Shown here: piece after piece, positions 4,280 to 30,334 of the stretch | Position numbering within the stretch: the first letter of the stretch is position 1 | How the letters are laid out: the number at the start of each line of letters is the position of its first letter | Origin: Verrucomicrobiaceae bacterium | GTDB taxonomy: Bacteria; Verrucomicrobiota; Verrucomicrobiia; Verrucomicrobiales; V1-33 | NCBI GenBank assembly: GCA_027483175.1 | Contig: JAIXVE010000316.1 | Coordinates: 1,179-65,178, forward strand | Length of the DNA stretch: 64,000 nt | Reading direction: 5' to 3' | The notes under the pieces: model-generated | The model's input: only the letters and a program-made list of their open reading frames with translations | The model's database searches: none | What the model was told of the DNA's origin: nothing | Position numbers and translations under genes: made by a program

Positions 4280-5758
4280 TCAGGGCAGGTCCGACCGCCC
4301 CATCAGGTACGTGTCGCACGCCTTCGCCGCCCCGCGCCCTTCATTGAACGCCCACACCACAAGGCTCTGCCCGCGACGGCAATCCCCCGCCGCAAACACA
4401 CCCGGCAGGCTCGTCTCATACCGCCCATGCTCAGCCTTCACATTGCTCCGCCCATCCCGCTCCACCCCCAGCGCATCCAGCAGCGGCTGCTCAGGCCCAA
4501 GGAAACCCATCGCCAGCAGCACCAGTTGCGCCGGCAGCACCCGCTCGGTCCCAGCCACCGGCTGCGGCCCGAACTGACCCTGCTCGTTCTTCCGCCACTC
4601 CACATCCACCACATGCACCGCCTTCACATTCCCCTCGCCGTCATCCTCAAAATGCGTCGCCGTCGTCAGGTAAACCCGAGGATCATCCCCGAACTTCGCC
4701 GCCGCTTCCTCCTGCCCGTAATCCATCTTGTACACCTTCGGCCACTCCGGCCACGGATTGTTCGCCGCCCGCTCCATCGGCGGCTTCGCCATGATCTCCA
4801 GCTGCGTCACCGTCGCGCAACCATGCCGCACCGACGTGCCCACACAGTCCGTCCCAGTGTCACCACCACCAATGATCACCACGTCCTTGCCTTCCGCAGA
4901 AATGAATTCCTTCCCGCCATCCAGCACCGCACGCGTGTTCGCCGTCAGGAAATCCATCGCAAAATGAATCCCCTTCAAACCACGACCCGCAATCGGCAGA
5001 TCCCGCGGCTTCGTCGCCCCAGTGCAGATCACCACCGCATCAAAATCCGCCTTCAATTGCTCCGCACTCACATCCGTCCCCACCGTCACCCCGCACCGGA
5101 ACTCCACCCCCTCAGCCTCCAGCAGCGCAATCCGCCGCAGCACCACTTCCTTCTTGTCCAGCTTCATGTTAGGAATGCCGTACATTAGCAGTCCGCCCGG
5201 CCGGTCCGCACGCTCAAACACCGTCACCAGATGCCCGGCTTTGTTCAACTGCGCCGCCGCCGTCAATCCCGCTGGGCCCGAACCAATCACCGCCACCTTC
5301 TTCCCCGTCCGGCTCACCGGCGGCTCCGGCTGCACCCAGCCCTCGTCCCATCCCTTGTCGATAATCGACACCTCGATGTTCTTGATCGTCACCGGCGGAT
5401 TGTTCATCCCCAGCACACACGACCCCTCACACGGCGCAGGACACACCCGCCCTGTAAACTCAGGGAAATTGTTCGTCTTGTGCAGCCGCTCCAGTGCTTC
5501 CTTCCACAACCCGCGGAACACCAGATCATTCCACTCCGGGATCAGATTGTTGATCGGACACCCGCTCGCCATCCCGCTGATCAGATTCCCCGTGTGGCAG
5601 AACGGCACGCCGCAGTCCATGCAGCGCGCCCCCTGCGTCCGCAGCTTCTCGTCAGGCAGATGCAGATGGAATTCCTTCCAGTCCTTGATCCGCTCCATTG
5701 GCTGCCGGTCCGCGGGGATTTCGCGGAGATACTCGATGAATCCTGTCGGTTTTCCCAT
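4280..5758 (-). CDS. gltD: glutamate synthase (NADPH) small subunit
   Basis: 492 aa. Fe-S cysteine clusters ([19 protein letters not shown]) and the dinucleotide fold [11 protein letters not shown]. Located directly downstream of gltB. Confidence 0.95.
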
Positions 5759-5835
5759 GTCAGTCTTTGCTTGGAATTTTTAGTGTGTTAGGCAGGCCCG
5801 GCTCACCGCCGGAACCTTGCGCCCATCTTCTCCGC

Positions 5836-8800
5836 TCAGCCCCCGCCAATCCGGGCCACGTCGCGCGCATTCGCTTCAAACGCCGCATTCAGCGCCTCGT
5901 CTCCCGTCAACCCGTCCTGCTCCGCCTTCCGCAGCGCCTGCAGCACCCGCTTGTAGTCCTTCGGCATCACCTTCACGAACTTCGGCAACATCTCATCCCA
6001 CAGCGCCAGCACCTTGAACGCCTTCTGGCTCTTCGTGCAGTCCGCATGCTTCTTGATCAGCGCATAAAGCTCGTCCGCTTCCGCCTTATCCTCCACCTTC
6101 TCCAGACCCACCATCTGCTGGTTGCAGCGCGTCGCAAAATCCCCGGCTTCATCAAGGATATACGCCACCCCGCCACTCATCCCGGCCGCAAAGTTCCGCC
6201 CCGTCACCCCCAGCACCACCACCCGGCCGCCCGTCATGTACTCGCAGCCGTGGTCACCCACACCTTCCACCACCGCATCCACCCCGGAATTCCGCACCGC
6301 AAAGCGCTCGCCAGCCATCCCGCGCAGGAACAATTCACCACTCGTCGCCCCATACAGCGCCGTGTTCCCAGCGATGATGTTCTCCTCCGCCGCAAACGTC
6401 GACCCAGCCGGCGGATACACAATGATCCGCCCGCCACTCAACCCCTTGCCCACATAATCGTTGGCATCCCCCTCAATCTCCAGCGTCACACCCTTCGGCA
6501 CAAATGCCCCGAAGCTCTGCCCCGCCGTTCCCAGGAACTTCAGATGCACCGTGTCATCCGGCAATCCATACCAGTGACGCTTCGTGATCTCATTCCCCAG
6601 AATCGTCCCCACCACCCGGTTCACATTCCGGATCGGCAGCGTCGCCGTCACCTTCTCCCCACGCTCAATCGCCGGCGCACACAGATCCAGCAGCTTCGTC
6701 ACGTCCATCGATTTCGCGATCCCGTGATCCTGCGCTTCACTGCAGTAACGACCCACTTCAGGCCCCGTCACCGGTTGGTGCAGCAGTCGGCTCAGATCAA
6801 TCCCCTGGGTCTTCCAGTGATCAATCGCCTTGTCAGCTTCCAGCACCTCCGTCCGCCCCACCATCTCCTCAATCGTCCGGAATCCTAGCTGCGCCATCAG
6901 CTCGCGTACTTCCTCAGCAATGAACTTCATGAAGTTCACCGTGTGCTGCGGATCGCCCGTGAACTTCGCACGCAACTCGGGATTCTGCGTAGCCACTCCC
7001 ACCGGACACGTGTTCAAATGACACACGCGCATCATGATGCATCCCAGCGTCACCAGCGGAGCCGTCGCAAACCCGAACTCTTCCGCCCCTAGCAACGCCG
7101 CAATCACCACATCCCGCCCGGTCTTCATCTGACCGTCCGCTTCCACCGCAATGCGGCTCCGCAGGTTGTTCAGCAGCAGGGTCTGATGCGTCTCCGCCAA
7201 CCCTAGCTCCCACGGCAGCCCCGCATGCTTGATCGACGTCTGCGGAGAAGCCCCCGTTCCGCCGTCAAACCCGGAAATCAGCACCACGTCCGCATGCGCC
7301 TTCGCCACCCCGGCCGCAATCGTCCCCACCCCAACCTCGGACACTAGCTTCACACTCACGCGCGCCGCTCGGTTCGCATTCTTCAGATCGTGAATCAGCT
7401 CAGCCAGATCCTCGATCGAATAAATATCATGGTGCGGCGGCGGCGAAATCAATCCCACCCCAGGCGTCGAATGCCTCACCTTCGCAATCCACGGATACAC
7501 CTTCGCTCCAGGCAGCTGCCCACCCTCTCCAGGCTTCGCACCCTGCGCCATCTTGATCTGAATCTCCTTCGCCTGCGTCAGATAAAGGCTCGTCACCCCG
7601 AAACGCCCCGACGCCACCTGCTTGATCGCACTGTTCTTCGAATCCCCGCGCTCGTTCGTCCACGTGTAACGCTCAGGATCCTCACCACCCTCACCAGTAT
7701 TCGACTTCCCGCCAATCCGGTTCATCGCAATCGCCAGCGCTTCATGCGCCTCGCTCGAAATCGACCCGTAACTCATCGCCCCAGTCTTGAAGCGCTTCAT
7801 GATCGACTCCGCCGACTCCACTTCCTCCAGCGGCACCGCCACCGTCGGCTTGAACGCCAGCAACCCGCGCAGCGTGAACTGCTGCCGCGTCTGGTTATTC
7901 ACTCCCTCGGAATACACCTTGAACGCCTCGAAACTCCCCGTCCGCACCGCACGCTGCAACGCGTGAATCGTCTGCGGACTGAACAAGTGCGCCTCACCCT
8001 CACGCCGCCACTGATACTCACCACCAGTGTCCAGCGCCGGACCAGCCACCTCGCGCTCCGGAAAGGCCCGACGATGCCGCACCAGCGCTTCCTCAGCAAT
8101 CACCCCGAGATCCGCTCCCTCAATCCGCGTCGCCGTCCAAGTGAAATACTTGTCCACCAGCGCCTGACTCAACCCCACGGCCTCGAAAATCTGCGCGCCG
8201 CGATAACTCTGCATCGTGCTGATCCCGATCTTCGACGCCACCTTGATCACCCCCTTCGTCGCCGCCTTGATGTAGTTCTTGCACGCCGTCTTGTGATCCA
8301 CGTTCACTAGCAATCCCTGCCGGATCATGTCGTCGAGCGTCTCGAACGCCAGATACGGATTGATCGCCCCGCAACCATAACCAATCAGCGTGCACAGGTG
8401 ATGCACCTCGCGCGGCTCACCGGACTCCAGCACGATGTCCATCTGCGTCCGCGTTCCTTTCCGGATCAGATGGTGATGCAATCCCGACACCGCCAGCAAT
8501 GCCGGAATCGCCGCATGCTCGCGGTCCACGCCACGGTCCGAAAGAATCAGAATGTTCTTCCCAGCCGCCACCAGCGCATCCGCCGCCGCACACAATTCAT
8601 CCATCGCCTTCTCCAATCCGCCCGCACCCAGCGCAGGATCAAACAGGATCGGCAGCGTCGCCGACTGGAACCGCCCCTGCGCCACACTCTTCAGCTTCGC
8701 CAGCTCCTCATTGCTCAGCACCGGCGTCTTCAACTCAATCAAATGACAGCTCTCTGGCTCGGGCTTCAACAGGTTGCCTTCCGCCCCAATCGTCGTCACC

Positions 8801-10419: not shown

Positions 10420-10610
10420 TGAGATGGGGTCGCGATCTATATAAGCGCCCTGAACCTCTTCCTCGCGGCTGGAAGGGGGGTTCTACGGGGGCGGGCAGTA
10501 AAGCGGTCTTGTCCGCAGGGTCAAGGCGGCTTTGTACCATTTCTAAGCAGGCTCGGGGCCAGGCACCCCCATGAATTTTTCATCAGAGCCCGCCCAACCC
10601 TCCCCGCCGC

Positions 10611-11651
10611 TCAATGGCTCCGCCGCCCGCGCCCATTCTCCCCGCCCGCCTTCGCCCCCTTCAGCTCCGCAAAAATCAGCCGCCCCGCGCTCGTCTGCAG
10701 CGCCGACCCCACCACCACCGGCACCGTGCTCCCAATCCACTCCCGCGCGTGATTCACCACAATCATCGTCCCGTCCGCAAGATACCCCACCGCCTGATGC
10801 TCGTCCCGTCCCTCCTTCACCAGCGCCAGCTCCACCTCGTCCCCCGCATTCACCGTCAACCGCATCGCCAGCGCCAGTTGATTCAGATTCAACACCGGCA
10901 CCCCCTGCAGCTGCGCCACCCGCCCCAGATTCCCATCGTTCGTCAGCAACCGCGCATCCAGCGCCTTCGCCAGCTGCACCAGCTTCGTGTCCACCATCCG
11001 CTCCTGCGGCTGCTCATCATCGTGCACCGACACCTCCAGCCCCTTCGTCCGCTGCAGTTCCTCCAGACACCCCAATCCCCGCCGCCCTCGCTCCCGCTTC
11101 ACCACATCCGGCAGATCCGCCAGCAAATGCAGCTCATTGATCACAAACCGCGGCACAATCAGCGTCCCATCCAGAAACCCAGTCGCACAAATCCCCGGCA
11201 GCCTCCCGTCAATCAGGATGTTCGTGTCCACCAGCAGCGGCTGTCTCATGATCCCTTCGTTCCGGAACCGCACGTACGGAATGATCAGCGAAAACTCCTG
11301 CCGGTTGCTCCGCAACGCCAGGGCCGTCCCCATATACCCCAACCCAAGATACACCGCCAACTGAAGCACCCCGCCCTTCCCCTCCGCATTCTGCGTCCAC
11401 GGAATGTTGTTCACCAGCCACGCACAGAAAATCCCAATCATCAGCCCGAACGTCCCCGCCGAAAAACTCCGGATCGTCAGGTTCCTCAGCATCACATCCA
11501 CCCCAATCACCCCGCCCGCAAACAACGCCCCCATCACCGCACCAGCCCACGGCGAAAAACTCGTCGCCGCCTGCGCCGCCGACATCCCCAGCAGCACACA
11601 GCAAATCACAAAAACCACTCGGACCGTCTGCAGTAGGGCGCGGGATGGCAT
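10611..11651 (-). CDS. PIN/TRAM domain-containing membrane protein (YacL-like)
   Basis: N-terminal hydrophobic helices, a PIN core (LLVDTNILIDGRL ... TNDGNL) and a C-terminal TRAM-like beta domain. The track start at 11663 is TTG; the first ATG is at 11651. Confidence 0.8.
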   Translation of the reverse strand: MPSRALLQTVRVVFVICCVLLGMSAAQAATSFSPWAGAVMGALFAGGVIGVDVMLRNLTIRSFSAGTFGLMIGIFCAWLVNNIPWTQNAEGKGGVLQLAVYLGLGYMGTALALRSNRQEFSLIIPYVRFRNEGIMRQPLLVDTNILIDGRLPGICATGFLDGTLIVPRFVINELHLLADLPDVVKRERGRRGLGCLEELQRTKGLEVSVHDDEQPQERMVDTKLVQLAKALDARLLTNDGNLGRVAQLQGVPVLNLNQLALAMRLTVNAGDEVELALVKEGRDEHQAVGYLADGTMIVVNHAREWIGSTVPVVVGSALQTSAGRLIFAELKGAKAGGENGRGRRSH

Positions 11652-11733
11652 GGTATGGTTCAATCAATGTCACCAGACCACACCTCCCGCAACCCTCTCT
11701 CAGGCTCACGGTCAGGCGGGCTCAGCTCCCGAC

Positions 11734-13116
11734 TCAGATATGAATCGCGTGCCCGTACGCCACCCCCGTCGCCTCATGAATCGCCTCCGACAGCGTCGGA
11801 TGCGCGTGAATCGTCGCCTCGATCTCGTCCTTCGTCGCCTCCATCGAGATCGCCAATCCCATCTCCGCTATCATCTCGGTCGCTTCCTGACCAATGATGT
11901 GCGCCCCGATCACTTCCCCGTGCGGCTCGCCGAAGATCAGCTTCACAAACCCGTCACTCTCTCCCACCGCCAGCGCCTTGCCGCTCGCCTGGAACGGAAA
12001 CACACCCACACGGTACTTCAAGCCCTTCTCCTTCGCCACACGCTCCGTCACCCCCACACTAGCCACCTGCGGCTGGCAGTACGTGCACCCAGGGAACACA
12101 TCCACCTTCTTCGGCTTGTGCGCCGTGAACATCCCGTCCACCGCCTGAATCGCCTCGAAACTCGCCACGTGCGCCAGCCACGGCGGCCCGATGATGTCCC
12201 CCGCCGCATACACGTCCTTCAGGCTCGTCTGATAACGCGCATCCGTCACCAGATACCCGCGCTCGCTCAGCTTCGGCTGCTGACCTCCCGGCAGCACCGG
12301 CTTCACCCCGATCGCCACCAGACACACGTCCGCCTTCAGCACCTGCTTCACCCCATCCTTGCCCTCCACTTCAATCTCCACACCGCTCCCGGTGTGCTTC
12401 GTCCCCACCACCTTCGTCGACGTCAGGCACTCAATCCCCTGCTTCTTGAAGCTCTTCTCCAGCGCCACACTAACGTCCGTATCTTCCACCGGCAGAATGT
12501 TCGGCTGCATCTCCACCACCGTCACCTTCGTCCCGAACGCGTTGAAAAAATACGCAAACTCAATCCCGATCGCTCCAGCCCCGATCACAATCACTTCCTT
12601 CGGCTGCTTCTCCAGCACCATCGCATCCTTGCTCCCGATCACCACCTTGCCGTCAAACCCAAGCCCGGGCATCTCCCGCGTCGCACACCCCGTCGCAATC
12701 AGAATCTTCTCCCCCTCAATCACACTCTTCGCCCCGTCCTTCGCCGTCACCTCAACCTTCCCGCCACCCAGCAGCGCTCCATTCCCGCGGATGTAATCCA
12801 CTTTGTTCTTCTTGAACAGAAACTCAATCCCCCCAGCCAGCCGGTCACTCACCTTCCGGCTCCGTCCAATGATCTTGCTCCAGTCATACGCCAGATTGTC
12901 AAAACTGAACCCGAACTCCCCAGCCTTGTGCGTCAGCAGATGATACAACTCCGCATTCCGCAGCAGGCTCTTCGTCGGAATACAGCCCCAGTTGAGACAC
13001 GTCCCGCCAGCACGGTCCGCTTCAACACAGGCCACTTTCTTTCCAAGTTGCGTGGCGCGGATGGCGCCAACATAGCCCGCCGGGCCGCCGCCGATGACGA
13101 TGAGGTCGTATTTCAT
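11734..13116 (-). CDS. lpdA: dihydrolipoyl dehydrogenase
   Basis: 460 aa. Motifs: FAD fold VIGGGPAGY, redox disulfide GGTCLNWGCIPTK and C-terminal interface HAHPTLSE. Confidence 0.95.
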   Translation of the reverse strand: MKYDLIVIGGGPAGYVGAIRATQLGKKVACVEADRAGGTCLNWGCIPTKSLLRNAELYHLLTHKAGEFGFSFDNLAYDWSKIIGRSRKVSDRLAGGIEFLFKKNKVDYIRGNGALLGGGKVEVTAKDGAKSVIEGEKILIATGCATREMPGLGFDGKVVIGSKDAMVLEKQPKEVIVIGAGAIGIEFAYFFNAFGTKVTVVEMQPNILPVEDTDVSVALEKSFKKQGIECLTSTKVVGTKHTGSGVEIEVEGKDGVKQVLKADVCLVAIGVKPVLPGGQQPKLSERGYLVTDARYQTSLKDVYAAGDIIGPPWLAHVASFEAIQAVDGMFTAHKPKKVDVFPGCTYCQPQVASVGVTERVAKEKGLKYRVGVFPFQASGKALAVGESDGFVKLIFGEPHGEVIGAHIIGQEATEMIAEMGLAISMEATKDEIEATIHAHPTLSEAIHEATGVAYGHAIHI

Positions 13117-15664: not shown

Positions 15665-17841
<2,177 letters not shown>

Positions 17842-17880
17842 CAATCGCCACACACATGACAATAATCTGCGCCTTGACTT

Positions 17881-18462
17881 ATGATCCTTCGCCGAATCGA
17901 CTTCCCCAACCTGAATGTCCGGGTTGACCCAGATGCGACAAAGCCAGAAGAGGAAGTCTGCGTTGATCTTCACGTCGGGGACAGCTTCATGGAAGCGGGT
18001 TCAAGCGCTTCATATCCCCTTGATAAACCGTATATGCTGAATCCCGGCGCTTGTATTGTAGTCCGCACCAAAGAGACAATTTCGTTGCCAAACGATGTAT
18101 TTGGAACGCTTTGCGCCAAAGGCTCTTTGGCCGCCCTTGGATTTCTTGTCCCAAACACCAAGGTTGATCCGCTGTTCGCTGGCCCATTGGATATTGCGCT
18201 TTTCAACGCGGGAACTCGTCCGCTAAGCGTCGAAAAGGGGCAGGCTTTCTGTTCGGCTGTTTTTCACAGCTTGCATGGACCCATCTCTCGGATCATACCT
18301 AGAACTGGAATTCATGTGGTTGAATTGAAGCAACAACCTGCTCGGCGCATTCTTCGATCCATATCGAAGCATGTTGAATACTGGAGGGGTGTCTACGGCC
18401 TTCTTGCAGCTTTGCTAGCCATTCTCTACGGAGTCCTTAAAGCATTCGGTAAGATACCATGA
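17881..18462 (+). CDS. dCTP deaminase/dUTPase-fold paralog, predicted catalytically degenerate, with C-terminal transmembrane helix
   Basis: 193 aa. Dcd-like blocks: VDLHVGDSF, LNPGACIVVRTKETISLPNDVFG, KGSLAALGF and VDPLFAGPLDIALFN. It has Ala where E. coli Dcd has Arg115 and Glu138. The C-terminal helix is VYGLLAALLAILYGVLKAF. Low-GC DNA. Confidence 0.7.
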   Translation: MILRRIDFPNLNVRVDPDATKPEEEVCVDLHVGDSFMEAGSSASYPLDKPYMLNPGACIVVRTKETISLPNDVFGTLCAKGSLAALGFLVPNTKVDPLFAGPLDIALFNAGTRPLSVEKGQAFCSAVFHSLHGPISRIIPRTGIHVVELKQQPARRILRSISKHVEYWRGVYGLLAALLAILYGVLKAFGKIP

Positions 18463-18983
18463 TCCTCTCACAACCAGAACTCGTAGATTTCGTATCAAAG
18501 GGGGGCATTCGTCGACCGGATGGCATCTCGCCATCTGTGGATTTGGTTTCTTTGGGGTTACACCTCGGCGGACAGTTTCTTCGCTACAAGGGCGATTTGG
18601 CACCACACATACTCCCCAGCAGCCTTGAAACAAAGGCTGTAAAACTCGAAGCAGATGGATGCGTCAGCTTTCCGCCCGGCTGCTGCCTCCTCGCATCAAC
18701 GTTAGAAGTTGTAGACATGCCTCTTGATTTGATGGGATTTATTCAGACGAAAGGGACGATTGCACGAGGTTTTGTGACCGTTCATTTGTGTGATGGACAG
18801 ATTGACCCAGGTTACAATGGAAGCATCACGCTCGAGCTTGTTAATTTAAGCCAACACTCGTATCGGCTCCGCCCTGGAATAGCAATCGCTCAACTGTTCT
18901 TGCATAAGCTGACCACACCGCTTCTAGTTGGCTATCAAGGACGTTACCAGCAGGCAACGGGACCTACATCAATGCGAGCGTGA
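18459..18983 (+). CDS. dCTP deaminase-family protein (Dcd/dUTPase fold), catalytic residues retained
   Basis: 174 aa: MILSQPEL..., TKGTIARGF, GQIDPGYNGSITLELVN, RPGIAIAQLF and YQGRYQQATGPT match the Dcd signature. ATGA overlap with the upstream paralog. Confidence 0.8.
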   Translation: MILSQPELVDFVSKGGIRRPDGISPSVDLVSLGLHLGGQFLRYKGDLAPHILPSSLETKAVKLEADGCVSFPPGCCLLASTLEVVDMPLDLMGFIQTKGTIARGFVTVHLCDGQIDPGYNGSITLELVNLSQHSYRLRPGIAIAQLFLHKLTTPLLVGYQGRYQQATGPTSMRA

Positions 18984-19228
18984 TGCGCTCATTCCTTGAT
19001 TTCGCCCACTTCGTTGAACTCGTATGCGAAGAAGAGTTCCGGGTCTATCGTAGCAACGCGTCAATTTTGGATGCGGATCGCTCAGGGCACAGATTTATTC
19101 CTCCCGATCTGAGCATCCTTCAAAAAGCGAATGCCTTCAACACGCAGAGATTGAAGCCTCACTTAAACGAGATAGTTGCCACTTTCTCCCCAATCGCCCC
19201 CTCACCATCGTTATCGCGGATAACCTAA
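18980..19228 (+). CDS. small hypothetical protein (82 aa), third gene of the Dcd-fold cassette
   Basis: Its start (GTG 18980 or ATG 18983) overlaps the stop codon of the preceding gene, and it has the same low-GC composition. No recognisable motif. Confidence 0.45.
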   Translation: MMRSFLDFAHFVELVCEEEFRVYRSNASILDADRSGHRFIPPDLSILQKANAFNTQRLKPHLNEIVATFSPIAPSPSLSRIT

Positions 19229-19311
19229 CCAGCTAAAGCACTCGACAAACAAAACGTCCTCCAGCCCCGGCATTCCTCCCCTTGCAAACGCGACGCCTCC
19301 AACCCTAAAGT

Positions 19312-20490
19312 ATGCGCGGAATGAAGAAGCGAGCCACCAAGAAGCCTCCACCGCTGGCCAAAGCCAAACCAGAATCGTTGTCTTCCCTCCTCACCGAAGT
19401 CCGCCACCTCATCCAGAGCGCCCGGCGCAGCGTCTCCACCGTCGTCGACACCTTCCAGGTGATGACCAACTTCGAAATCGGCCGCCGCATCGTCGAGCAC
19501 GAGCAGAAAGGCGCGAAGCGTGCGGCGTATGGCGCGGAGTTGTTGAAGGAGCTTTCAGCGAGGCTCACGGAGGAGTTTGGGAGAGGGTTCTCCGAGGACA
19601 ACTTGTCCAACATGCGACGCTTCTTCCTGACCTGGAGGGACCGTGTGGCTCAGATTTCCGAGACAGCGTCTGGGAAATTGGTCGGAGCCGAGATTCTTCA
19701 GACTGTATCTGAAAAATCCGAGACACGGTCTCGGAAATCGGTCCCCATCTCAATTCGCCAGACGCCGGCTGGAAAACCTCCCTTCACCCTCAGTTGGTCG
19801 CACTACGTCGTGCTCATGACCATCAAGGACCCGGACGAACGCAGCTTCTACGAGATTGAATCCCACCAGGCAGACTGGGATGTCCGCGAACTCAAGCGCC
19901 AGAAAGCCTCCTGCCTCTACGAGCGCCTCGCCCTCAGCCGGGACAAGGAAGGCATCCGCAAACTCGCCAAGGAAGGCCAGGTCATCATCAAGCCGGAGGA
20001 CTTGCTGAAGGAGCCCCTCGTGCTCGAGTTCCTCGGCCTCGACTCACAGTCCAGCTACTCCGAGACCGACCTCGAGCAGGCCATCATCAACCGCCTCGAG
20101 CACTTCCTCCTCGAACTCGGCAAAGGCTTCCTCTTCGAGGCCCGCCAGAAGCGCTTCACCTTCGATGAAGACCACTACTTCGTCGATTTGGTCTTCTACA
20201 ACCGACTCCTCCGCTGCTACGTCATCATCGACCTCAAGCTCGACAAGCTCACCCATCAGGACCTCGGCCAGATGCAGATGTACGTGAACTACTACGACCG
20301 CGAAGTGAAACTCCCTGACGAAAACCCCACCATCGGCCTCCTCCTCTGCAAATCCGCCAAAAAAACCATCGTCGAACTCACCCTGCCCAAAGACGCCAAC
20401 ATCCATGCAAAGGCGTATCAGCTCTACCTCCCCTCCAAGGAACTGCTCAAGCGGAAGCTCGACGAATGGAGCGCCGCCGCTTCCCGCTAA
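19312..20490 (+). CDS. DUF1016 / YhcG-family PDDEXK nuclease-domain protein
   Basis: 392 aa. N-terminal helical DUF1016 region (RAAYGAELLKELSARLTEEFGRGFSEDNLSNMRRFF) and a C-terminal PDDEXK core (DLVFYNRLLRCYVIIDLKLDKLTHQDLGQMQMYVNYY). Confidence 0.85.
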   Translation: MRGMKKRATKKPPPLAKAKPESLSSLLTEVRHLIQSARRSVSTVVDTFQVMTNFEIGRRIVEHEQKGAKRAAYGAELLKELSARLTEEFGRGFSEDNLSNMRRFFLTWRDRVAQISETASGKLVGAEILQTVSEKSETRSRKSVPISIRQTPAGKPPFTLSWSHYVVLMTIKDPDERSFYEIESHQADWDVRELKRQKASCLYERLALSRDKEGIRKLAKEGQVIIKPEDLLKEPLVLEFLGLDSQSSYSETDLEQAIINRLEHFLLELGKGFLFEARQKRFTFDEDHYFVDLVFYNRLLRCYVIIDLKLDKLTHQDLGQMQMYVNYYDREVKLPDENPTIGLLLCKSAKKTIVELTLPKDANIHAKAYQLYLPSKELLKRKLDEWSAAASR

Positions 20491-20524
20491 GGAAACGGGG
20501 TCGGGCTGCAACTGTCTGACAAAA
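20491..20524 (+). repeat. about 34-nt direct repeat, copy 1 (immediately 3' of yhcG-like gene)
   Basis: ggaaacggggtcgggctgcaactgtctgacaaaa aligns with 22705-22737 at roughly 30 of 36 aligned positions, with one indel each way. Confidence 0.55.
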
Positions 20525-20578
20525 CATCGCCCTGTCCTTCTCGGCGGCTCCAACTCTCAGCATAAGATGCGTCCTGAA

Positions 20579-21631
20579 TCAATTCAGGGCTGCAATCAAC
20601 TCACTCATCAACTCGGACGCCTTTCGGTGTCGGATGAGCGGTGCAGCTTGTCCGGCATAGAGTGGCAGTAGAGACGAGTCGCCAAGCCGCACTCCTTCTG
20701 TTTTCACAGACTGGTTGAAGGAGGCTTGCAGCGGGAAAGGCAAGGCGGGTGAATGACTATTCTCCAGTTCATCCAGCAAAGGAGTGCTCATGAAGCGAGC
20801 GAGCCTCCCGGTAAAGCGACGGCTCAACTGCGTGCGAGCCGCTGCAGGAGTAAACAAGGCCTCGCGGTGCGGTGGAGGGCAGTTCGATTCCTCGCAGGCG
20901 AGAAAAGCAGTCCCGACCTGCACCGCATCCGCGCCGAGTTGGAAGGCCGCCCGAATGCCGCGGACTTCCGCGATGCCCCCCGCGGCAATCACCGGCTTGC
21001 GGGTGACATTTCGCACCTGCGGCACGAGCGCCAGCGTGCCCGTGAGCGATTGCTCGGCAGACCTCAGAAAGCTCGGGCGATGTCCACCAGCCTCCGAACC
21101 CGTCGCAACAATCATGTCCACGCCAGCCTCATCCAGCGCGGCAGCTTCTTCCTGCGTCGTGGCGGTTCCAACAGTCACAATGCCGCTTCGAGTGCACTCA
21201 CGCAGGATCTCGACATCCGGAATGCCGAACACAAAACTGAACACGGCCGGCCGTGTTTCGAGAATCACCTCAACCTGCTCCTCAAAGCTGAAATCATCCG
21301 GCGGCTCCATGGGCGGGGCTTCGATACCAAGACGTTCATAAATCGCACCAAACTGCCGCAAACCGGCCTCATGATGCGCGGCTGTCATTTCCTCCGCACC
21401 CGGATCATATCGCGAGACCCACAGGTTAATGTTGAAGGGCTTGGAGGTCGCCGATTGCAGATCGCGAATCACCTCCCGCATCTGGGTCGGAGACAGATGA
21501 TGCGCTCCGAAGGAGCCGAGGCCGCCCGCATTCGACACCGCCGCCGCAAGCTTCACAGACGACAACCCGCCGCCGAACGGTCCCTGAATGATGGGATGCT
21601 CGATGCCTAGGCGGGAGGTGAACGCATTCAT
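20579..21631 (-). CDS. nitronate monooxygenase (NMO / 2-nitropropane dioxygenase family)
   Basis: MNAFTSRLGIEHPIIQGPFGGGLS..., AAGGIA and a TIM-barrel FMN pattern. The track start at 21697 overlaps the upstream gene; the ATG at 21631 follows the upstream stop by 2 nt. Confidence 0.9.
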   Translation of the reverse strand: MNAFTSRLGIEHPIIQGPFGGGLSSVKLAAAVSNAGGLGSFGAHHLSPTQMREVIRDLQSATSKPFNINLWVSRYDPGAEEMTAAHHEAGLRQFGAIYERLGIEAPPMEPPDDFSFEEQVEVILETRPAVFSFVFGIPDVEILRECTRSGIVTVGTATTQEEAAALDEAGVDMIVATGSEAGGHRPSFLRSAEQSLTGTLALVPQVRNVTRKPVIAAGGIAEVRGIRAAFQLGADAVQVGTAFLACEESNCPPPHREALFTPAAARTQLSRRFTGRLARFMSTPLLDELENSHSPALPFPLQASFNQSVKTEGVRLGDSSLLPLYAGQAAPLIRHRKASELMSELIAALN

Positions 21632-21633
21632 AC

Positions 21634-22242
21634 TCAGACGGGGAACTGGTTCTCGATCACCGTTTCGCTCACGTCGAGGCGATCCCCTCGCGGCCATGGC
21701 TCCTGCAAGCTTTTGCCAATCGCGATCATGAAGCTGATCGCGTGGTCGTCGGGCAGACGGATGATTTCCGAGACCGCCTCAGGGTCGAATCCCACCATCG
21801 GGCAGGTCTCGTAACCAAGCCCCCTCGCCGCTAGCATCAGCGTCATGCCGCCCAGCGCAGTGGAACGCATCGCCTCATCGCGGATGAGCTGATCCTTTCC
21901 TGCATAGAAGCCTTTCAAGGCAGGCACCAGAATGTCCTGAACCGGCTGCGGCGCATGACTCCAGTAACGCTCCGGCTGATGCTCATGCGCCCTCAAATCC
22001 GCGCACATCACAACCAGCAGCGACGCGTCCGTCACCTGTGCCTGATCCCAGGCCACAGCGCGGATCTGTTTGCGCAGCTCCGGATCGCGCACGAGCACAA
22101 AGCGGTAGTTCTGCATGTTAAAGGACGATGGCGCGAGCCGGGCAAGCTCCAGAAGCTTGTCCACCTCAGCCTGTGGCATGACATGGGCAGAATCAAAGTG
22201 CTTGATGGAACGACGGGTTTCGATGGCTTCGAGGATATTCAT
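21634..22242 (-). CDS. nitroreductase family protein
   Basis: 202 aa: MNILEAIETRRSIKHF..., PSSFNMQNYRFVLV. Typical NfsB/FRase-like fold signature. Confidence 0.9.
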   Translation of the reverse strand: MNILEAIETRRSIKHFDSAHVMPQAEVDKLLELARLAPSSFNMQNYRFVLVRDPELRKQIRAVAWDQAQVTDASLLVVMCADLRAHEHQPERYWSHAPQPVQDILVPALKGFYAGKDQLIRDEAMRSTALGGMTLMLAARGLGYETCPMVGFDPEAVSEIIRLPDDHAISFMIAIGKSLQEPWPRGDRLDVSETVIENQFPV

Positions 22243-22346
22243 GGGATGAAGCCAGAAGTGTGTTCTCCCGGTTACTTTTGTAAACCGTCAGCGTTGCCGA
22301 TGGCGCTGAATCCGGTATCCAATCAGTAACCACCACGCCCCTTGCC

Positions 22347-22697
22347 ATGGTCCCCCGCCGCAAAAGCAAAGTCAGTCCACCACCACCGGCTTGTCCGCTG
22401 AAACTCTGCATGAGCTTCCTCGGAGGTGCCTGGACTCCGAACATCATCTGGTACCTCAGCGGCGGCCCTCGCCGCTTCACCGAGCTGAAAAACGATCTCG
22501 TGGGCATATCGGCCAAAATGCTCACCCAGCGCCTGCGCCACCTCGTCGAGATCGGCGTGGTCGATCGTCACGAACAGCCCACCTCACCTCCAACGGTCGA
22601 ATACTCGCTCACCGAAATCGGCTGCGAACTCAAACCGGCGATCGAAGCCATCGTCCGCGTTGGCGAAAAACTGAAGCGCCTGGAGAAGCAAGTCTAG
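22347..22697 (+). CDS. HxlR-family transcriptional regulator
   Basis: 116 aa: CPLKLCMSFLGGAWTPNIIWYLSGGPRRFTELKNDLVGISAKMLTQRLRHLVEIGVV...VEYSLTEIG. Divergent from the nitroreductase/NMO pair. Confidence 0.9.
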   Translation: MVPRRKSKVSPPPPACPLKLCMSFLGGAWTPNIIWYLSGGPRRFTELKNDLVGISAKMLTQRLRHLVEIGVVDRHEQPTSPPTVEYSLTEIGCELKPAIEAIVRVGEKLKRLEKQV

Positions 22698-22704
22698 GCT
22701 AGCG

Positions 22705-22737
22705 GGAAACAGGGGCAGGCAGCAACTGCCTGACAAA
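22705..22737 (+). repeat. about 34-nt direct repeat, copy 2 (immediately 3' of hxlR)
   Basis: ggaaacaggggcaggcagcaactgcctgacaaa. It contains the local palindrome caggcag-caa-ctgcctg. Homologous to 20491-20524. Confidence 0.55.
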
Positions 22738-22896
22738 TCACCTTCCTCGCTCCCGTGGGTGAATCAGCGAAGCGAAGGAACCTGAACCGAGCCCCGAATG
22801 CACCCTCCAGCCCCTTCCCGGGCGTCCCGGCGGTCCCTCGGTCGCGGTGAGTGTTCATCCTTCCTGCACTTGAACCCCGACCATCGCTGTGCCCCA

Positions 22897-23325
22897 CAAT
22901 TCGCCTTCCCCGAAGCCTTCCCCGACCGTGAGATTGTGCAGACACTGTCTGCACAACTGAGCTGGAGCCATTTTACCGCCATCGTTCCCCTGGATGATGC
23001 GCTGAAACGCGACTTCTACGCCGAGATGTGCCGCCTGGAGAACTGGAGCTACCGCACCCTGCGCGACAAGATCGGCTCCATGCTCTACGAGCGCACCGCG
23101 ATCTCCAAAAAGCCGGACAAGCTCATCAAACAGGAACTCGCCGCCCTGCGCAGCGAGGACAAACTGACGCCAGACCTCGTCTTTCGCGATCCCTACATCC
23201 TCGACTTCCTCGGGCTGAAGGACACCTATGCCGAGAAGGACGTGGAGGCGGCGATCCTGCGCGAGGTGGAGAGCTTCATCCTCGAACTCGGCGTCGGCTT
23301 TGCCTTCCTGGAGCGCCAGAAGCGG
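22897..23325 (+). pseudogene. truncated DUF1016/YhcG paralog (middle segment only)
   Basis: FAFPEAFPDREIVQTLSAQLSWSHF...FLGLKDTYAEKDVEAAILREVESFILELGVGFAFLERQKR aligns with the middle of the intact copy at 19312-20490. It lacks both the N-terminal helical region and the PDDEXK core, and homology stops 47 nt before the phd-like start. Confidence 0.65.
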
Positions 23326-23372
23326 AAGGCACAGGTGTTTGCATCACGGCCTGCATGCGTTACACTCCGAGC

Positions 23373-23579
23373 ATGAGCAAGACCGCCAAAGCACCCGAGA
23401 TCATCACCCGGCGCGGCAAACCCATTTCGGTGATCCTCCCCATCAAGGACTATCAGGCATTGCTTGATCGACTCGAAGACGCTGAGGATGCGGCCTGTCT
23501 CAAAAAAGCCCGCGCAAAGCCCCAATCCTTCCGCCCGCTGAACGAATACCTCGCCGCCCATGGAAAAGCCCGGATATGA
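23373..23579 (+). CDS. type II antitoxin, Phd/YefM-like
   Basis: 68 aa: MSKTAKAPEIITRRGKPISVILPIKDYQALLDRLEDAEDAACL.... It overlaps the relE-like gene by 20 nt. Confidence 0.8.
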   Translation: MSKTAKAPEIITRRGKPISVILPIKDYQALLDRLEDAEDAACLKKARAKPQSFRPLNEYLAAHGKARI

Positions 23580-23826
23580 GGTTCTCATCGAGCGCGCTGC
23601 CGAAAGAGACCTCCGCCGGCTGCCCACCGATGTCCATGACAGGGTAGTCGCTGCCATCATTCCCCTCGCCACCAATCCCCGGCCCCCGGGCTCGAAGAAG
23701 CTCACCGGCACTTCGAACGACTGGCGCATCCGTGTCGGCGACTACCGGGTACTCTACGACATCTCCGACAAAGTTCGCATCGTCCGCGTCTACCGGGTAC
23801 GACATCGCCGCGACGCTTACCTGTGA
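23560..23826 (+). CDS. type II toxin, RelE/ParE family
   Basis: 88 aa: YEVLIERAAERDLRRLP...KKLTGTSNDWRIRVGDYRVLYDISDKVRIVRVYRVRHRRDAY. Confidence 0.85.
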   Translation: MEKPGYEVLIERAAERDLRRLPTDVHDRVVAAIIPLATNPRPPGSKKLTGTSNDWRIRVGDYRVLYDISDKVRIVRVYRVRHRRDAYL

Positions 23827-24278
23827 AACCGCCTCAGTGAGCTGGGAAGAGTAGCCCCTCGGCTCCGCTTCCCCCGCGAATATCAGTCACGGCCTCAGGC
23901 ATGATCCAGGAAAAGTCCTTTCTTCGATGCGGCACCTGGTCCAGTGCCCGCTGATGGGCGGCCACGCCTGCGTTTTGCACGGCGCAGCGGAACGCAATGC
24001 CGCGCCAGCGGAAATCTGATCGCGAAGCCGAACCACGTAGCCGAAGGCAATTTACCAGAGATACCGATTTCGCAATACTACCCAGCGAGGCCAACGCCGA
24101 AAGATTCACCATGGCCATGCAGGACCTCGCAGGCAAGCGCCTTCGCCATCGCAGAGCCCTCCCCTGCTCACACCGCGCCCATCCACGCCTGCGGATTCCC
24201 CCGCTCGCGTCTGGACAGACCGGCCACCCCATCCTTAAATCGCCCCGGATCAGCCGCCACCCTGCTCTCCCTGCGCCC

Positions 24279-27868: not shown

Positions 27869-28251
27869 TCCTCGACACCAATTTCATCATCGTGGCCGAA
27901 CGTGAGGCCAAGCGCGGCATCACCACCACAATCGACCGCTTCTTTGCCTCAAGGACCAGAGAGACCTTCTACATCACGTTCACTGTGGCCGGAGAATTGG
28001 CGTGCGGGCAATCCGCGAGCCCGAAGCGCGACTGGGAGCGCCTTTGCCGCCCTTACCCGATCCTCCCCTGGTCCAGCGAAGTCTCCTGGCAGTACGGCGA
28101 GATCTACCGGACGCTCGCAGCCAAAGGACAACTGATCGGATCCAATGACATGTGGATCGCCGCCACCGCGTTGGTGCACGGCATGGGCATCGTCACCAAC
28201 AATGTGGCCGAATTCAGTCGCGTGCCGGGCCTGCCAGTCGTGTCCTATTGA
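27859..28251 (+). CDS. vapC: PIN-domain toxin VapC
   Basis: 130 aa: MGLILDTNFIIVAERE...SNDMWIAATALVHGMGIVTNNVAEF, with conserved acidic PIN residues. Confidence 0.85.
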   Translation: MGLILDTNFIIVAEREAKRGITTTIDRFFASRTRETFYITFTVAGELACGQSASPKRDWERLCRPYPILPWSSEVSWQYGEIYRTLAAKGQLIGSNDMWIAATALVHGMGIVTNNVAEFSRVPGLPVVSY

Positions 28252-28259
28252 TTCGCTCC

Positions 28260-28985
28260 ATGAACCCTACCCTCTGCATTCTCGGCGGCTGCAACGGAGC
28301 AGGGAAAACCACCCTCGCACGCGAACTCCTGCCTCGCCTCGGCCTGATGCGTTTCCTGAATGCGGACGAGATTGCGAGGGGCCTCTCGCCGCTCGACCCC
28401 ACGCTCAGTGCATTCCGGGCGGGGCGGCTGGTCCTCGAGGAGGCGAGGGCACTCATTGCTGCGAAGGGAAGCTTTGCCATTGAGAGCACACTCAGCGGCA
28501 AGGCTCAGGCGGGGCTAATCCGGGAGGCGAAGGCAAGTGGGTACCGTGTGCTGCTCCACTACATCGTCATCGGTTCGGCGACGCAGGCGGTGGACCGCGT
28601 CGCCCTGCGCGTGAAACTCGGTGGCCATCACGTGCCTGAGGACGACATCCGCCGCCGTTATGAGCGCAGCCGCCAGCATTTCCTTGAGGATTACCTCCCC
28701 CTTGCCGATGAGTGGGGCCTGTGGGAAAATCACTCACCACCCGCGGTGCAGATCGCCGACAGCAAGACCCACACGATCGACCAGCTTCACGCCATGCTCA
28801 CCTCCAACAACCCTCAAGAGACACCTCCTCGCGAGATGTCCGAGATGTCGAAAATCGTGCTCGAAGCCAGCCGCGTGGCCACCGAGAAAATGCTCGACTA
28901 CTACAAGCGCATGGGCATCAAGGTCACCCCGCAGATGACCCTCGCCCCGGAGAAACCGAAACGCGTGCGCCGGAACACGAAGTGA
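28260..28985 (+). CDS. zeta-toxin-like / COG4185-type P-loop ATPase with C-terminal extension
   Basis: Walker A LGGCNGAGKTTLA, then FLNADEIARGL and HHVPEDDIRRRYERS. The product is 241 aa, about 50-60 aa longer than I expect for this family. The track start at 28152 overlaps vapC and was rejected. Confidence 0.75.
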   Translation: MNPTLCILGGCNGAGKTTLARELLPRLGLMRFLNADEIARGLSPLDPTLSAFRAGRLVLEEARALIAAKGSFAIESTLSGKAQAGLIREAKASGYRVLLHYIVIGSATQAVDRVALRVKLGGHHVPEDDIRRRYERSRQHFLEDYLPLADEWGLWENHSPPAVQIADSKTHTIDQLHAMLTSNNPQETPPREMSEMSKIVLEASRVATEKMLDYYKRMGIKVTPQMTLAPEKPKRVRRNTK

Positions 28986-29117
28986 AGTCACTGGCGGGAA
29001 GCCGGCCGGTGCCCACATCAGTGGCATAGCCAATAGGTTCGTCGATACCCCTTGCCGGTCACTACACCGCCGCAGAATCGATCGAGTTGCCTTCACGGAT
29101 CCAGCCCAAACCGCGCT

Positions 29118-29155
29118 CATACGTCCCATTTGACGCACGTCATGAGGGACGTATG
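29118..29155. promoter_or_regulatory. nested palindrome immediately upstream of the ATPase gene pair (candidate operator or 5'-UTR hairpin)
   Basis: catacgtccc (29118-29127) pairs perfectly with gggacgtatg (29146-29155). The inner pair is tgacg-ca-cgtca (29131-29142). It ends 8 nt before the ATG at 29163. Confidence 0.35.
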
Positions 29156-29162
29156 TTCATCC

Positions 29163-30332
29163 ATGAAAGCAAACCCCGGAGGCCAAATCGACCTCAACGC
29201 AGTCCTCGGACGCGACCGGCTCATCCAGAACATCTGGGAAATCGTCCAGCAGCAAAGCATGGTGATCACCGCCGAACGCCGTATCGGCAAAACCACGGTC
29301 ATGAAGAAAATGGCGGCCGAACCTCAACGGGGTTGGCTTCCAGTATATCAGGACCTGGAAAGCTGCCACTCGGCCGCCGAATTCTCGATGGCGGTCTACA
29401 AGCAGGTGCATCACTTCCTCAGCGGAAAGAGCAAATTGGCCAGACGATCCAAGGAGTTTCTAGGATCCCTTGGGGGAATCGAACTTGGCGGCACCATCAA
29501 ACTGCCGGAAAAGGCGGCCACTCCTTGGAAGGAGGTTCTGACCAAGGCGATCGAGGATCTGATGCACGAGAACGATGAGGGCACCAAACTGCTGTTCCTG
29601 TGGGATGAGTTGCCGTTCATGCTGATGAACATCCGCGACGGCGAAGGCGAACAGACCGCCATGCAGGTGCTTGATCATCTGCGGTGGCTGCGTCAGACGC
29701 ACAGCGGGCTTCGCATGGTCATCACGGGCTCCGTCGGCCTTCACCATGTCCTCACTTCCCTCAAGGAAAAAAGCTACGCCAACTCTCCAGTCAATGACAT
29801 GGCGACGGTGGATGTCCCTCCCTTGGCACCAAACGACGCCGTCAGCCTGGCTCTTTTGTTGATTGACGGGGAATCCCTGCCGTCATCTGACAAACCCGCG
29901 GCAGCAGCAGCCATTGCCCGGGAAGCAGATTGCTTCGCCTTCTACATCCACCACATTGTCAGGGGCCTGAAAATCATGGAATGGGACGCCAGTCCTGAAA
30001 ATGTCGCCAAGGTGGTCGCCTCGCATCTGATCGATGCCAACGACCCATGGGAGTTGCTCCACTATCGCGAGCGGATTGCCACCTATTACCAGAACCACCA
30101 GAAGGAAGTCTCCCTGATTCTGGATGAACTGGCAGCTCAGAACGAGCAAGCCTCGGTGGCCGAATTGTTGGCCATGCTCAAGGGCGCAAGCCAGTTTGAC
30201 GACCGAGACCGGCTCCTTCGCCTTCTCAACCTGATGGAGCGTGATCACTACCTGAAACGGGACGAGTCTGGAGCATATCGCTTCCGCTTCCCGCTGATCC
30301 GCCGCTGGTGGAAACTCAACCGCGGCCTGTAA
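29163..30332 (+). CDS. P-loop ATPase (archaeal-ATPase/STAND-like) with C-terminal winged-helix-like region
   Basis: 389 aa. Walker A ITAERRIGKTTV, Walker B LLFLWDELP, and a C-terminal LLRLLNLMERDHYLKRDESGAYRFRFPLIRRWW. Composition is lower in GC than the core genes. Confidence 0.75.
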   Translation: MKANPGGQIDLNAVLGRDRLIQNIWEIVQQQSMVITAERRIGKTTVMKKMAAEPQRGWLPVYQDLESCHSAAEFSMAVYKQVHHFLSGKSKLARRSKEFLGSLGGIELGGTIKLPEKAATPWKEVLTKAIEDLMHENDEGTKLLFLWDELPFMLMNIRDGEGEQTAMQVLDHLRWLRQTHSGLRMVITGSVGLHHVLTSLKEKSYANSPVNDMATVDVPPLAPNDAVSLALLLIDGESLPSSDKPAAAAAIAREADCFAFYIHHIVRGLKIMEWDASPENVAKVVASHLIDANDPWELLHYRERIATYYQNHQKEVSLILDELAAQNEQASVAELLAMLKGASQFDDRDRLLRLLNLMERDHYLKRDESGAYRFRFPLIRRWWKLNRGL

Positions 30333-30334
30333 CC

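Follow-up and report, generated by a model that had tools for sequence, protein, structure and literature searches.

The 64,000-nucleotide stretch of a Verrucomicrobiaceae bacterium contig analysed in this work (the window) harbors, just downstream of thiC, two small adjacent genes whose products both show the fold of dCTP deaminase (Dcd) and dUTPase. This raises the question of whether they represent a housekeeping dcd with a degenerating copy or a functional unit of another kind. In the following, A and B are open reading frames (ORFs) 1 and 2 of the window, C is an additional Dcd-fold paralog found upstream of A in other genomes, and labels of the form Lnnn denote the collected cassette contigs or loci, L001 being identical to the window contig. 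According to our data, the cassette is a self-contained, horizontally mobile two-gene module, belonging to a family with two or three core genes plus optional accessory genes; the pairing and the coupling of A and B are strict, and A is deaminase-dead by its residue pattern. That the cassette is a conflict/defence module acting via dCTP deamination is a reading to which we assign about half of our confidence.

The three ORFs lie on the + strand exactly where the preliminary description of this locus had placed them: A at 17881–18462 (193 residues), B at 18459–18983 (174 residues), and ORF3, with a GTG start, at 18980–19228 (82 residues). The two stop/start overlaps on which a single translational unit had been proposed, that is, ATGA at 18459–18462 (A to B, read in the sequence) and GTGATG at 18980–18985 (B to ORF3), are both present. 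In the profile searches, which had been suggested for these ORFs, both A and B turned out to match the DCD family PF22769 (8e-13 and 1e-23, respectively). Against the NCBIfam model dCTP_deam (TIGR02274), A scored 65.1 bits, under the cut-off of 92.8, and the dut family models scored it far under their own cut-offs. In the HMMER alignment, Ala85 (18133–18135) and Ala106 (18196–18198) of A correspond to Arg115 and Glu138 of E. coli Dcd, confirming the Ala previously read at both positions, and the Ser111 position is occupied by Gly (K-G-S). The best PDB sequence match of the A-family profile is 1xs4, the crystallised inactive E138A mutant of E. coli Dcd.

The AlphaFold2 model of A (predicted local distance difference test score, pLDDT, of 84.7) consists of a beta-barrel (residues 1–130), a linker (145–153) with a pLDDT below 50, a basic helix (154–167), and a hydrophobic helix (169–188). 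The last of these agrees with the C-terminal hydrophobic segment noticed earlier, VYGLLAALLAILYGVLKAF (residues 171–189, codons 18391–18447), whose mean Kyte–Doolittle score is 2.02 and which is predicted to be a transmembrane helix. Foldseek retrieved E. coli Dcd and archaeal dUTPases with this model; for A and B, the Foldseek probability to the E. coli and M. tuberculosis enzymes was 1.00. A lacks the C-terminal lid arm and motif V, in place of which it carries the transmembrane helix, and its allosteric loop is shortened compared to that of Dcd.

These features are not restricted to the window. When 1.84 billion representatives were searched exhaustively with a profile, 267 A clusters were obtained (50% identity, E ≤ 1e-10); in the best 149 of these 267, Glu was never found at the Glu138 position, nor Arg at the Arg115 position (0/149 in both cases), while the Asp128 equivalent was kept in 136 and a C-terminal hydrophobic 19-mer in 128. 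The same strict helix threshold was passed by A in 80 out of 98 loci, and the inspection of nine exceptions revealed five proteins with a weaker helix and four truncated ones. The helix is conserved across the family while its sequence drifts, and purifying selection on A is clear: its motifs are invariant and the added helix is kept across at least seven phyla. Since A retains the Asp used by dUTPases, the earlier label of a catalytically dead protein holds for deamination only: the loss of the deaminase Glu and Arg stands, and the retained dUTPase-type Asp limits the claim.

B is a full-length dCTP deaminase-type protein with intact catalytic residues. It scored 101.9 bits against TIGR02274, above the equivalog cut-off; the more distant B of Pantoea (L036) remained below it, with 84.4 bits. 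Its sequence aligns end to end with the bifunctional dCTP deaminase–dUTPase of M. tuberculosis, including the C-terminal Y..RYQ..GPT arm, and its AlphaFold2 model (pLDDT 95.7) superposes on the same enzyme (Foldseek template modeling score of 0.90, 31% identity). In agreement with the preliminary description, the Arg115 and Glu138 equivalents are retained in the alignment as Arg103 (18765–18767) and Glu126 (18834–18836). Moreover, Lys98, Gly99, Arg103, Asp112, Gln114, Glu126, and Tyr163 are invariant in all 111 loci collected (see below); at the position equivalent to Asp128, 50 loci have Asp and 60 have Glu. The canonical R-S-S motif is absent from B, the Ser111 position being an invariant Gly (K-G-T), and an invariant Asp-Gly-Gln (CDGQ-type) loop replaces the T-A-H-R or T-A-G-F of canonical Dcd. 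B also contains the IAQL motif seen in the bifunctional enzymes, and it can be recognized by the signature QTKG[ST][IL]AR and DGQ[IV][DE]PG. Hence, by its sequence, B shows most of the features of Dcd and of bifunctional (DCD-DUT) enzymes, departing from them at Ser111 and in its genomic behavior: rather than a single-copy, vertically kept housekeeping gene, it is sporadic, low in G+C, and subject to decay through insertion sequences (ISs) and pseudogenization. Its most likely activity is to deaminate dCTP, yielding dUTP or dUMP.

In order to define the unit, the occurrence of the two genes was surveyed. Among 5.8 billion sequences, the close homologues fell into 26 clusters for A and 45 for B at 90% identity, and any contig coding for one of them codes for its partner alongside. 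A genome scan with patterns from close A sequences (PNTK[VI]DP[LM]F and EEVCVDL[HRS]V) did not retrieve anything; a scan with patterns built on the B alignment, using one genome per species, retrieved 24 loci (in Bacillota, Myxococcota, Planctomycetota, Acidobacteriota, and the three proteobacterial classes named below), and a metagenome scan 80 further ones. After the removal of duplicates, the set comprised 111 loci, with 70 A-B, 28 C-A-B, and 13 B-only arrangements; in ten of the latter the contig breaks off within 400 nucleotides, and three are decayed or partial. In 98 loci B is immediately preceded by A, and at the roughly 94 junctions measured the two genes overlap by four nucleotides in 39 cases and by one in 10, most of the others being no more than 20 nucleotides apart. 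The pair proposed from a single locus therefore recurs as a conserved, coupled unit.

The third paralog, C, is found in L024, L029, L030, L032–L034, L036 (8521–10336), and about 21 metagenome loci. It keeps the C-terminal arm and, in 27–28 out of 28 sequences, the R-S-T..R residues; its Asp position is Pro in 21 out of 28, and its Glu position is Gly, Ala, Ser, or Asn. In both A and C the loop at the position of the Dcd allosteric loop is two residues shorter, as in dUTPases. C being devoid of Asp and Glu, and A of Glu and Arg, the two paralogs have lost complementary parts of the active site, and B none.

ORF3 does not appear to belong to the cassette. No match to it was found in Pfam, PADLOC, or NCBIfam, and a tblastn search over about 190 related loci retrieved nothing except the identical contig L001, on which the gene caller did not call it; furthermore, its G+C by codon position fits neither the genome nor the cassette. 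Likewise, nothing left over from the accessory genes discussed below (Nudix or peptidase-like) was found downstream of B in the window. The lack of homologues, the absence of a gene call, and the atypical composition indicate that the unit in the window has two genes and that ORF3 is probably not a gene; of the three-gene translational unit originally proposed, the conserved and coupled A-B part stands and the third component does not.

The composition of the locus sets these two genes apart. The drop in G+C that had been counted by hand after thiC is confirmed: the value is 0.498 at 18001–19000 and about 0.60–0.65 in the surroundings, and the whole low-G+C, low-skew block (17881 to approximately 19300, the latter limit being taken from the ORF map) has a G+C of 0.50 vs. 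0.63 in the rest of the window, which marks a foreign segment. At third codon positions, A and B have a G+C of 0.49 and 0.47, respectively, compared to 0.79 in thiC and 0.80 in the DUF1016 gene downstream, and the GC skew of the block is −0.04, compared to −0.3 to −0.45 elsewhere in the window; according to these values, the foreign-looking block is essentially A plus B alone. Around the window cassette, neither direct repeats of the att type nor terminal inverted repeats were found.

The same deficit is found across the family. The cassette has a lower G+C than its flanks in 31/31 loci of the first round and, overall, in 75 of the 77 loci whose flanks measure 3 kb or more, with a median difference of −0.085. 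Its distribution, over at least seven phyla, is sporadic, and includes Verrucomicrobiota, Planctomycetota, Myxococcota, Acidobacteriota, Bacillota, and Alpha-, Beta-, and Gammaproteobacteria. L011–L014 correspond to a small integrative element with an integrase and replication genes; within an integrase-bearing element, the cassette directly adjoins the phage-type integrase, and an identical B was observed on 21 contigs. In L034 (Erwiniaceae), IS3-type OrfA/OrfB genes lie on both sides of the cassette (5707–7624 and 10607–11718), a composite-transposon-like layout around C-A-B, and in L033 (Stutzerimonas stutzeri UBA2301) an IS (1618–2598) separates A from B. Decay is also observed: B is broken in L038 (Marinomonas rhodophyticola) and in L137, and in L002 a frameshift affects the accessory Nudix gene. 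The unit can thus be described as compositionally foreign, sporadic, and mobile.

As for the genomic site, the preliminary description had pointed to synteny with thiC in related genomes as the sign of a housekeeping gene. In part, this sign is present: the pair does follow thiC in the window, L002, and L005, and the identities among these three loci are 81–84% for ThiC, 77–78% for A, and 68–71% for B; however, each of the three is followed by different genes, in L005 two additional ORFs separate thiC from A, and in the close relative L004 the cassette is located at a different site, beside an ABC transporter. Rather than a conserved metabolic operon, the arrangement at the thiC site resembles an insertion of some age or a hotspot within a variable region.

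With respect to mobile replicons, a protein search of sequenced plasmids and phages retrieved only canonical dcd genes (no more than 42% identity, mostly below 36%) and no cassette, and none was retrieved when 5,426 E. coli genomes were searched at the DNA level with the three-gene version from Pantoea. Only three of the best 80 matches among the IMG/VR viral contigs were A+B cassettes, one of them adjoining a Lamassu system; since such cassettes are so few, a phage origin is not supported.

The comparison with known systems helps to define what is new in this architecture. B shares its fold with E. coli Dcd and with the bifunctional enzymes of M. tuberculosis and M. jannaschii, together with the equivalents of Arg115, Asp128, and Glu138 and the C-terminal arm. 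However, the known Dcd and DCD-DUT enzymes are homotrimers encoded by one conserved gene, whereas B is co-encoded with one or two deaminase-dead paralogs and differs from canonical Dcd in the Ser111 replacement by Gly, the Asp-Gly-Gln loop, the sporadic spread, and the foreign composition. The archaeal Dcd-like dUTPases (Thermococcus pacificus 8y1w and P45 9ln0) are among the best sequence and structure matches of A, with which they share the absence of the deaminase Glu and the presence of the Asp; unlike A, which has K-G-S, neither Arg115 nor the arm, and a transmembrane helix, they are soluble homotrimers with R-S-S. Nor does A show the complete set of five motifs of trimeric Dut, since it keeps the Asp and lacks motif V.

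The defensive dCTP deaminase of Tal et al. joins a zinc cytidine-deaminase domain and an N-terminal kinase domain in one polypeptide, in agreement with the preliminary description, which had taken the published design to be a different one; dCTP deamination is thereby a proven anti-phage strategy, in which the host dUTPase turns dUTP into dUMP. AvcD, a dCTP/dCMP deaminase, is described as the toxin of the AvcID toxin–antitoxin pair, which has an RNA antitoxin (PMC10511110). The cassette resembles these systems in its proposed chemistry (the deamination of deoxycytidine nucleotides) and outcome (phage DNA synthesis being starved), in the nearby defence genes, and in the toxin–antitoxin-like control of AvcID. 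On the other hand, they rely on a zinc-dependent domain and a kinase-like P-loop domain, neither of which is present in A or B, and have nothing resembling the role of A as a membrane-anchored pseudoenzyme. In this respect, the cassette would represent nucleotide depletion by dCTP deamination that has been reached from another fold and is combined with a new architecture of regulation.

With type II toxin–antitoxin systems, the cassette shares two small coupled genes with the presumed neutraliser first (ATGA in the window and overlaps of four or one nucleotides at 49 of the roughly 94 junctions), as well as being mobile, island-borne, and often decayed. It differs from them in that the presumed antitoxin, A, is a paralog of the toxin, carries a membrane anchor, and has no DNA-binding domain; moreover, we know of no toxin–antitoxin precedent for neutralisation via mixed trimers.

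The claim that the design is undescribed is in line with our searches. PADLOC, including its dCTP-deaminase models, gave no match to A, B, or ORF3 at E ≤ 1, and NCBIfam release 20.0, which includes anti-phage models derived from DefensePredictor, lacks models for A, B, and C as well as for the accessory proteins. In the full-text literature, where subscription journals are thinly covered, the pair was not found described, so that an earlier mention is possible. A dUTPase domain highlighted by DefensePredictor was considered as a prior description and discarded, as it belongs to a different system, with a MazG-C kinase and aGPT-Pplase.

How might such a pair work? Dcd-family enzymes are homotrimers with three inter-subunit active sites, whose allosteric loops switch together via the central channel (PMC4827122). 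Given inter-subunit sites and concerted loop switching, mixed trimers would be either incomplete or locked off. In the mechanism that we propose, A would be made together with B and would co-assemble with it into mixed trimers, held at the inner membrane by the tail anchor; in one third of the systems, the second dead paralog, C, would join them. The interfaces with a dead subunit would lack Glu, Arg, or Asp, yielding incomplete or locked-off sites, and a short-looped dead subunit could hold the whole trimer off. A trigger, such as phage infection, would then cause A to be lost or rearranged and B to be freed; free B would drain dCTP and starve DNA replication, resulting in depletion or abortive infection with a toxin–antitoxin-like logic, while the resulting dUTP would be cleared by the host or by a co-encoded dUTPase or Nudix enzyme. 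We infer the enzyme activity, the mixed trimers, the trigger, and the anti-phage effect; within the conflict-module reading, the mixed-trimer brake is the element that we consider likeliest, if also the most tentative. Only tentatively do we go further and suggest a new class of anti-phage system, in which a homotrimeric enzyme has been split into obligate heterotrimers (A-B, or C-A-B with complementary losses of motifs), only certain sites can be completed, and the on/off state is tied, through a tail-anchored pseudoenzyme, to what happens at the inner membrane. In addition, the Asp-Gly-Gln loop might allow B to act on phage-modified deoxycytidine nucleotides.

The neighbourhood of the cassette was inspected for defence genes, which had been noticed beside the pair in the window. 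Eighteen loci were annotated gene by gene, and in about 11 of them a defence-type gene lies within two to three genes, a proportion that is suggestive, the sample being small, partly opportunistic, and without a matched background. In the window, this neighbour is a DUF1016/YhcG PD-(D/E)xK nuclease (19312–20490, + strand; PF17761 and PF06250), which matches the PADLOC candidate PDC-S02 with 3e-139; its third-position G+C is native-like, and it is not kept beside the cassette in other loci, so that we consider it a neighbour and not a component. Elsewhere, the neighbours include a TIR protein downstream in L004, an NsnA/GmrSD-like protein and an ATPase in L007 (Luteolibacter luteus), TIR and restriction–modification genes in L011, PRTase_III-A in L035, Lamassu (LmuA/LmuB) in L039, a NucC-like nuclease in L017, and a type II restriction–modification system with an NsnA-like protein in L145. 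L030 has a likely type I restriction–modification system, inferred from gene sizes and aggregate matches, and L029 a weak 2TM-effector-like match. In L032, a Xanthomonas metagenome-assembled genome (MAG), an IetA-like AAA ATPase and a subtilase lie on either side of the cassette (7006–8586 and 10860–12560), which looks as if it were inserted into or beside an Iet defence system. Downstream of the cassette, L005 has a GHKL ATPase and L008 genes of the extracellular contractile injection system (eCIS) type.

The clustering of neighbours revealed no universal third gene: Nudix, dUTPase, and peptidase-like genes are all optional, which rules out a fixed third partner. Proteins of 622–625 residues near four cassettes, considered as a possible single family, turned out not to form one: they include LmuB, a GHKL ATPase, and a Sll1717-type P-loop protein. 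Another optional protein, of 184–192 residues and with an invariant Cys, His, and DPGP motif, follows the Nudix gene in seven of the eight loci in which it occurs and directly follows B in L023, and is possibly a cysteine peptidase. Optional downstream genes were recorded in L039 (10487–11646), L016 (10525–11175), L161–L164, L180, L140, and L023 (9276–9830). NCBIfam has no model for either the Nudix or the 184–192-residue protein, and Pfam gave a single weak NUDIX match for the former and none for the latter.

Several observations weigh against the reading of the cassette as a conflict/defence module acting via dCTP deamination. Besides the limits of the defence-neighbour sample mentioned above, the recurring optional partners are nucleotide-handling proteins, which fits a metabolic role too. 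A TM1382-type Nudix protein (about 200 residues; PDB 3e57, E = 1e-44) is encoded in 18 loci, mostly directly downstream, and a canonical dUTPase in at least nine: in L028, L160, L190 (confirmed), and L184 (probable) the operon includes a fused dut, in L131 and L134 dut lies upstream of the cassette, and in three Marinomonas species (L019, L020, L038) the cassette stands between coaBC and dut. A ribonucleotide reductase large subunit (1090 residues) precedes the cassette in L007 (4314–9238) and in the Methylococcaceae MAG L022 (5182–8454), and a HAD hydrolase lies inside the cassette of L023. Furthermore, the shared thiC site with a ThiC-like divergence fits long vertical retention, sequenced phages and plasmids rarely carry the cassette, and the libraries of known defence systems contain no match to A, B, or C. 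As for the proteins themselves, the contact between A and B is putative, and His121 is not conserved across B, which, together with the Gly at the Ser111 position, makes the substrate and activity of B uncertain.

In principle, these points could be accommodated by an accessory metabolic or house-cleaning module, that is, a heteromeric Dcd supplying dUMP for the synthesis of dTTP or removing a non-canonical deoxycytidine nucleotide together with the dUTPase or Nudix enzyme, and spreading as a metabolic add-on. The adjacent or operon-fused dUTPase genes belong to several lineages, the Nudix gene is directly downstream in many of its 18 loci, and the ribonucleotide reductase and HAD hydrolase genes point in the same direction; B, moreover, exceeds the NCBI threshold for dCTP deaminase, and its non-canonical invariant CDGQ-type loop could mean a different substrate. 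However, a gene family with this function would hardly be expected to be so sporadic (about 267 A clusters among the 1.84 billion representatives), to show a consistent G+C deficit, to be disrupted by ISs, pseudogenized, and carried by integrase-bearing elements, or to have defence genes as frequent neighbours. Gammaproteobacteria that carry the cassette normally have dcd and dut already, and a membrane anchor with one or two dead paralogs has no obvious metabolic purpose. On balance, we regard this explanation, the main rival, as rather unlikely.

A plain toxin–antitoxin or addiction module, in which B would be a dCTP-draining toxin and A a labile antitoxin stabilizing the island without any sensing of phages, appears improbable to us. 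The two small genes with the putative antidote first, the stop/start overlap, and the carriage by integrase-bearing elements and variable regions would be in line with it, and AvcD is itself described as the toxin of such a pair (PMC10511110). Yet A has no DNA-binding or autoregulatory domain and does have a conserved membrane anchor, the versions with three paralogs or extended by Nudix and dUTPase genes are unusual for toxin–antitoxin systems, and the cassette is rare on plasmids.

The roles of the two proteins might also be reversed, with the mixed trimer sensing nucleotides (the dCTP/dUTP pool or phage-modified dCTP) and the clustered helices of A damaging the membrane. Single-helix membrane effectors are common in abortive-infection systems; the family-wide conservation of the A helix despite its drifting sequence, and the short dUTPase-like loop and partial nucleotide-binding motifs of A and C, are compatible with this possibility. 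Nevertheless, the catalytic residues of B are invariant, which speaks for selection for catalysis and not for binding alone; the co-encoded dUTPase and Nudix enzymes suggest that handling of the product matters, and a single helix per subunit is a weak pore former. We therefore consider a reversal of roles quite improbable. Finally, there is hardly any room for ORF2 being the housekeeping dcd and ORF1 a decaying tandem duplicate: ORF2 does pass the dCTP_deam equivalog threshold, no other Dcd-fold ORF was found within the 64-kb window, and the pair stands by thiC in three related genomes, but A is under purifying selection with motifs and helix kept across at least seven phyla, both genes have a third-position G+C about 0.3 lower than the neighbouring genes, lineages that normally possess a canonical dcd carry this pair too, and B is pseudogenized in some carriers.

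The remaining features of the window can be summarized as follows. Upstream of A, two overlapping sigma-70-like promoter matches, GTGACA-17-AATAAT and ATGACA-18-TATGAT, each with 10/12 matching positions, lie at 17838–17885 on the + strand; a scan of the 39-nucleotide gap between thiC and A gave two sites vs. 1.1 expected, which is non-significant alone and thus weak evidence. A terminator scan at the window locus gave chance-level matches only. The preliminary description had placed the cassette at the head of a defence island: a DUF1016 nuclease, a SNF2 helicase, and an ATPase with AAA_16, wHTH, and TPR domains are indeed present, but they are not contiguous, the defence-like genes being interspersed with housekeeping ones (nitronate monooxygenase, nitroreductase, and HxlR). 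The window also encodes a Zeta-toxin-like protein, AAA ATPases, and a truncated second copy of DUF1016 (192 residues, 22798–23376), located 2.3 kb downstream of the first. An imperfect 40-nucleotide direct repeat with 23-nucleotide inverted arms is embedded at 19644–19743, inside the DUF1016/PDC-S02 coding sequence.

The + strand of the window shows an extreme negative GC skew (−0.3 to −0.45) nearly throughout its length (1–64000), relaxed to between −0.04 and −0.19 at 17000–24000 and 28000–32000, both of which contain foreign-looking genes. This skew probably reflects the C-ending codon usage of the + strand genes, and it could be used as a native/foreign marker in this genome. Within a region of strong negative skew, a 2306-residue frame is open on the − strand (39454–46374), overlapping many + strand ORFs; this frame could represent either a giant gene or a spurious antisense reading.

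The family is small and can be defined by sequence, A by the absence of Glu and Arg together with the transmembrane helix, and B by its two motifs. Annotation pipelines label B as “dCTP deaminase” and A as “dUTPase”, “deoxycytidine triphosphate deaminase”, or “hypothetical”; because of such labels, defence finders do not see these loci, and metabolic reconstructions may be misled by them. The defence role of the cassette is a well-motivated hypothesis and not a result. If it is true, nucleotide depletion by dCTP deamination would have been reached a second time, starting from the unrelated Dcd/dUTPase fold, and a new principle of control would emerge, in which dead paralogs, one of them tethered to the membrane, poison or gate the inter-subunit sites of a trimer. 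This, in turn, would imply a simple way from a housekeeping enzyme to a switchable weapon, and would make the cassette a tractable model for regulation by pseudoenzymes.

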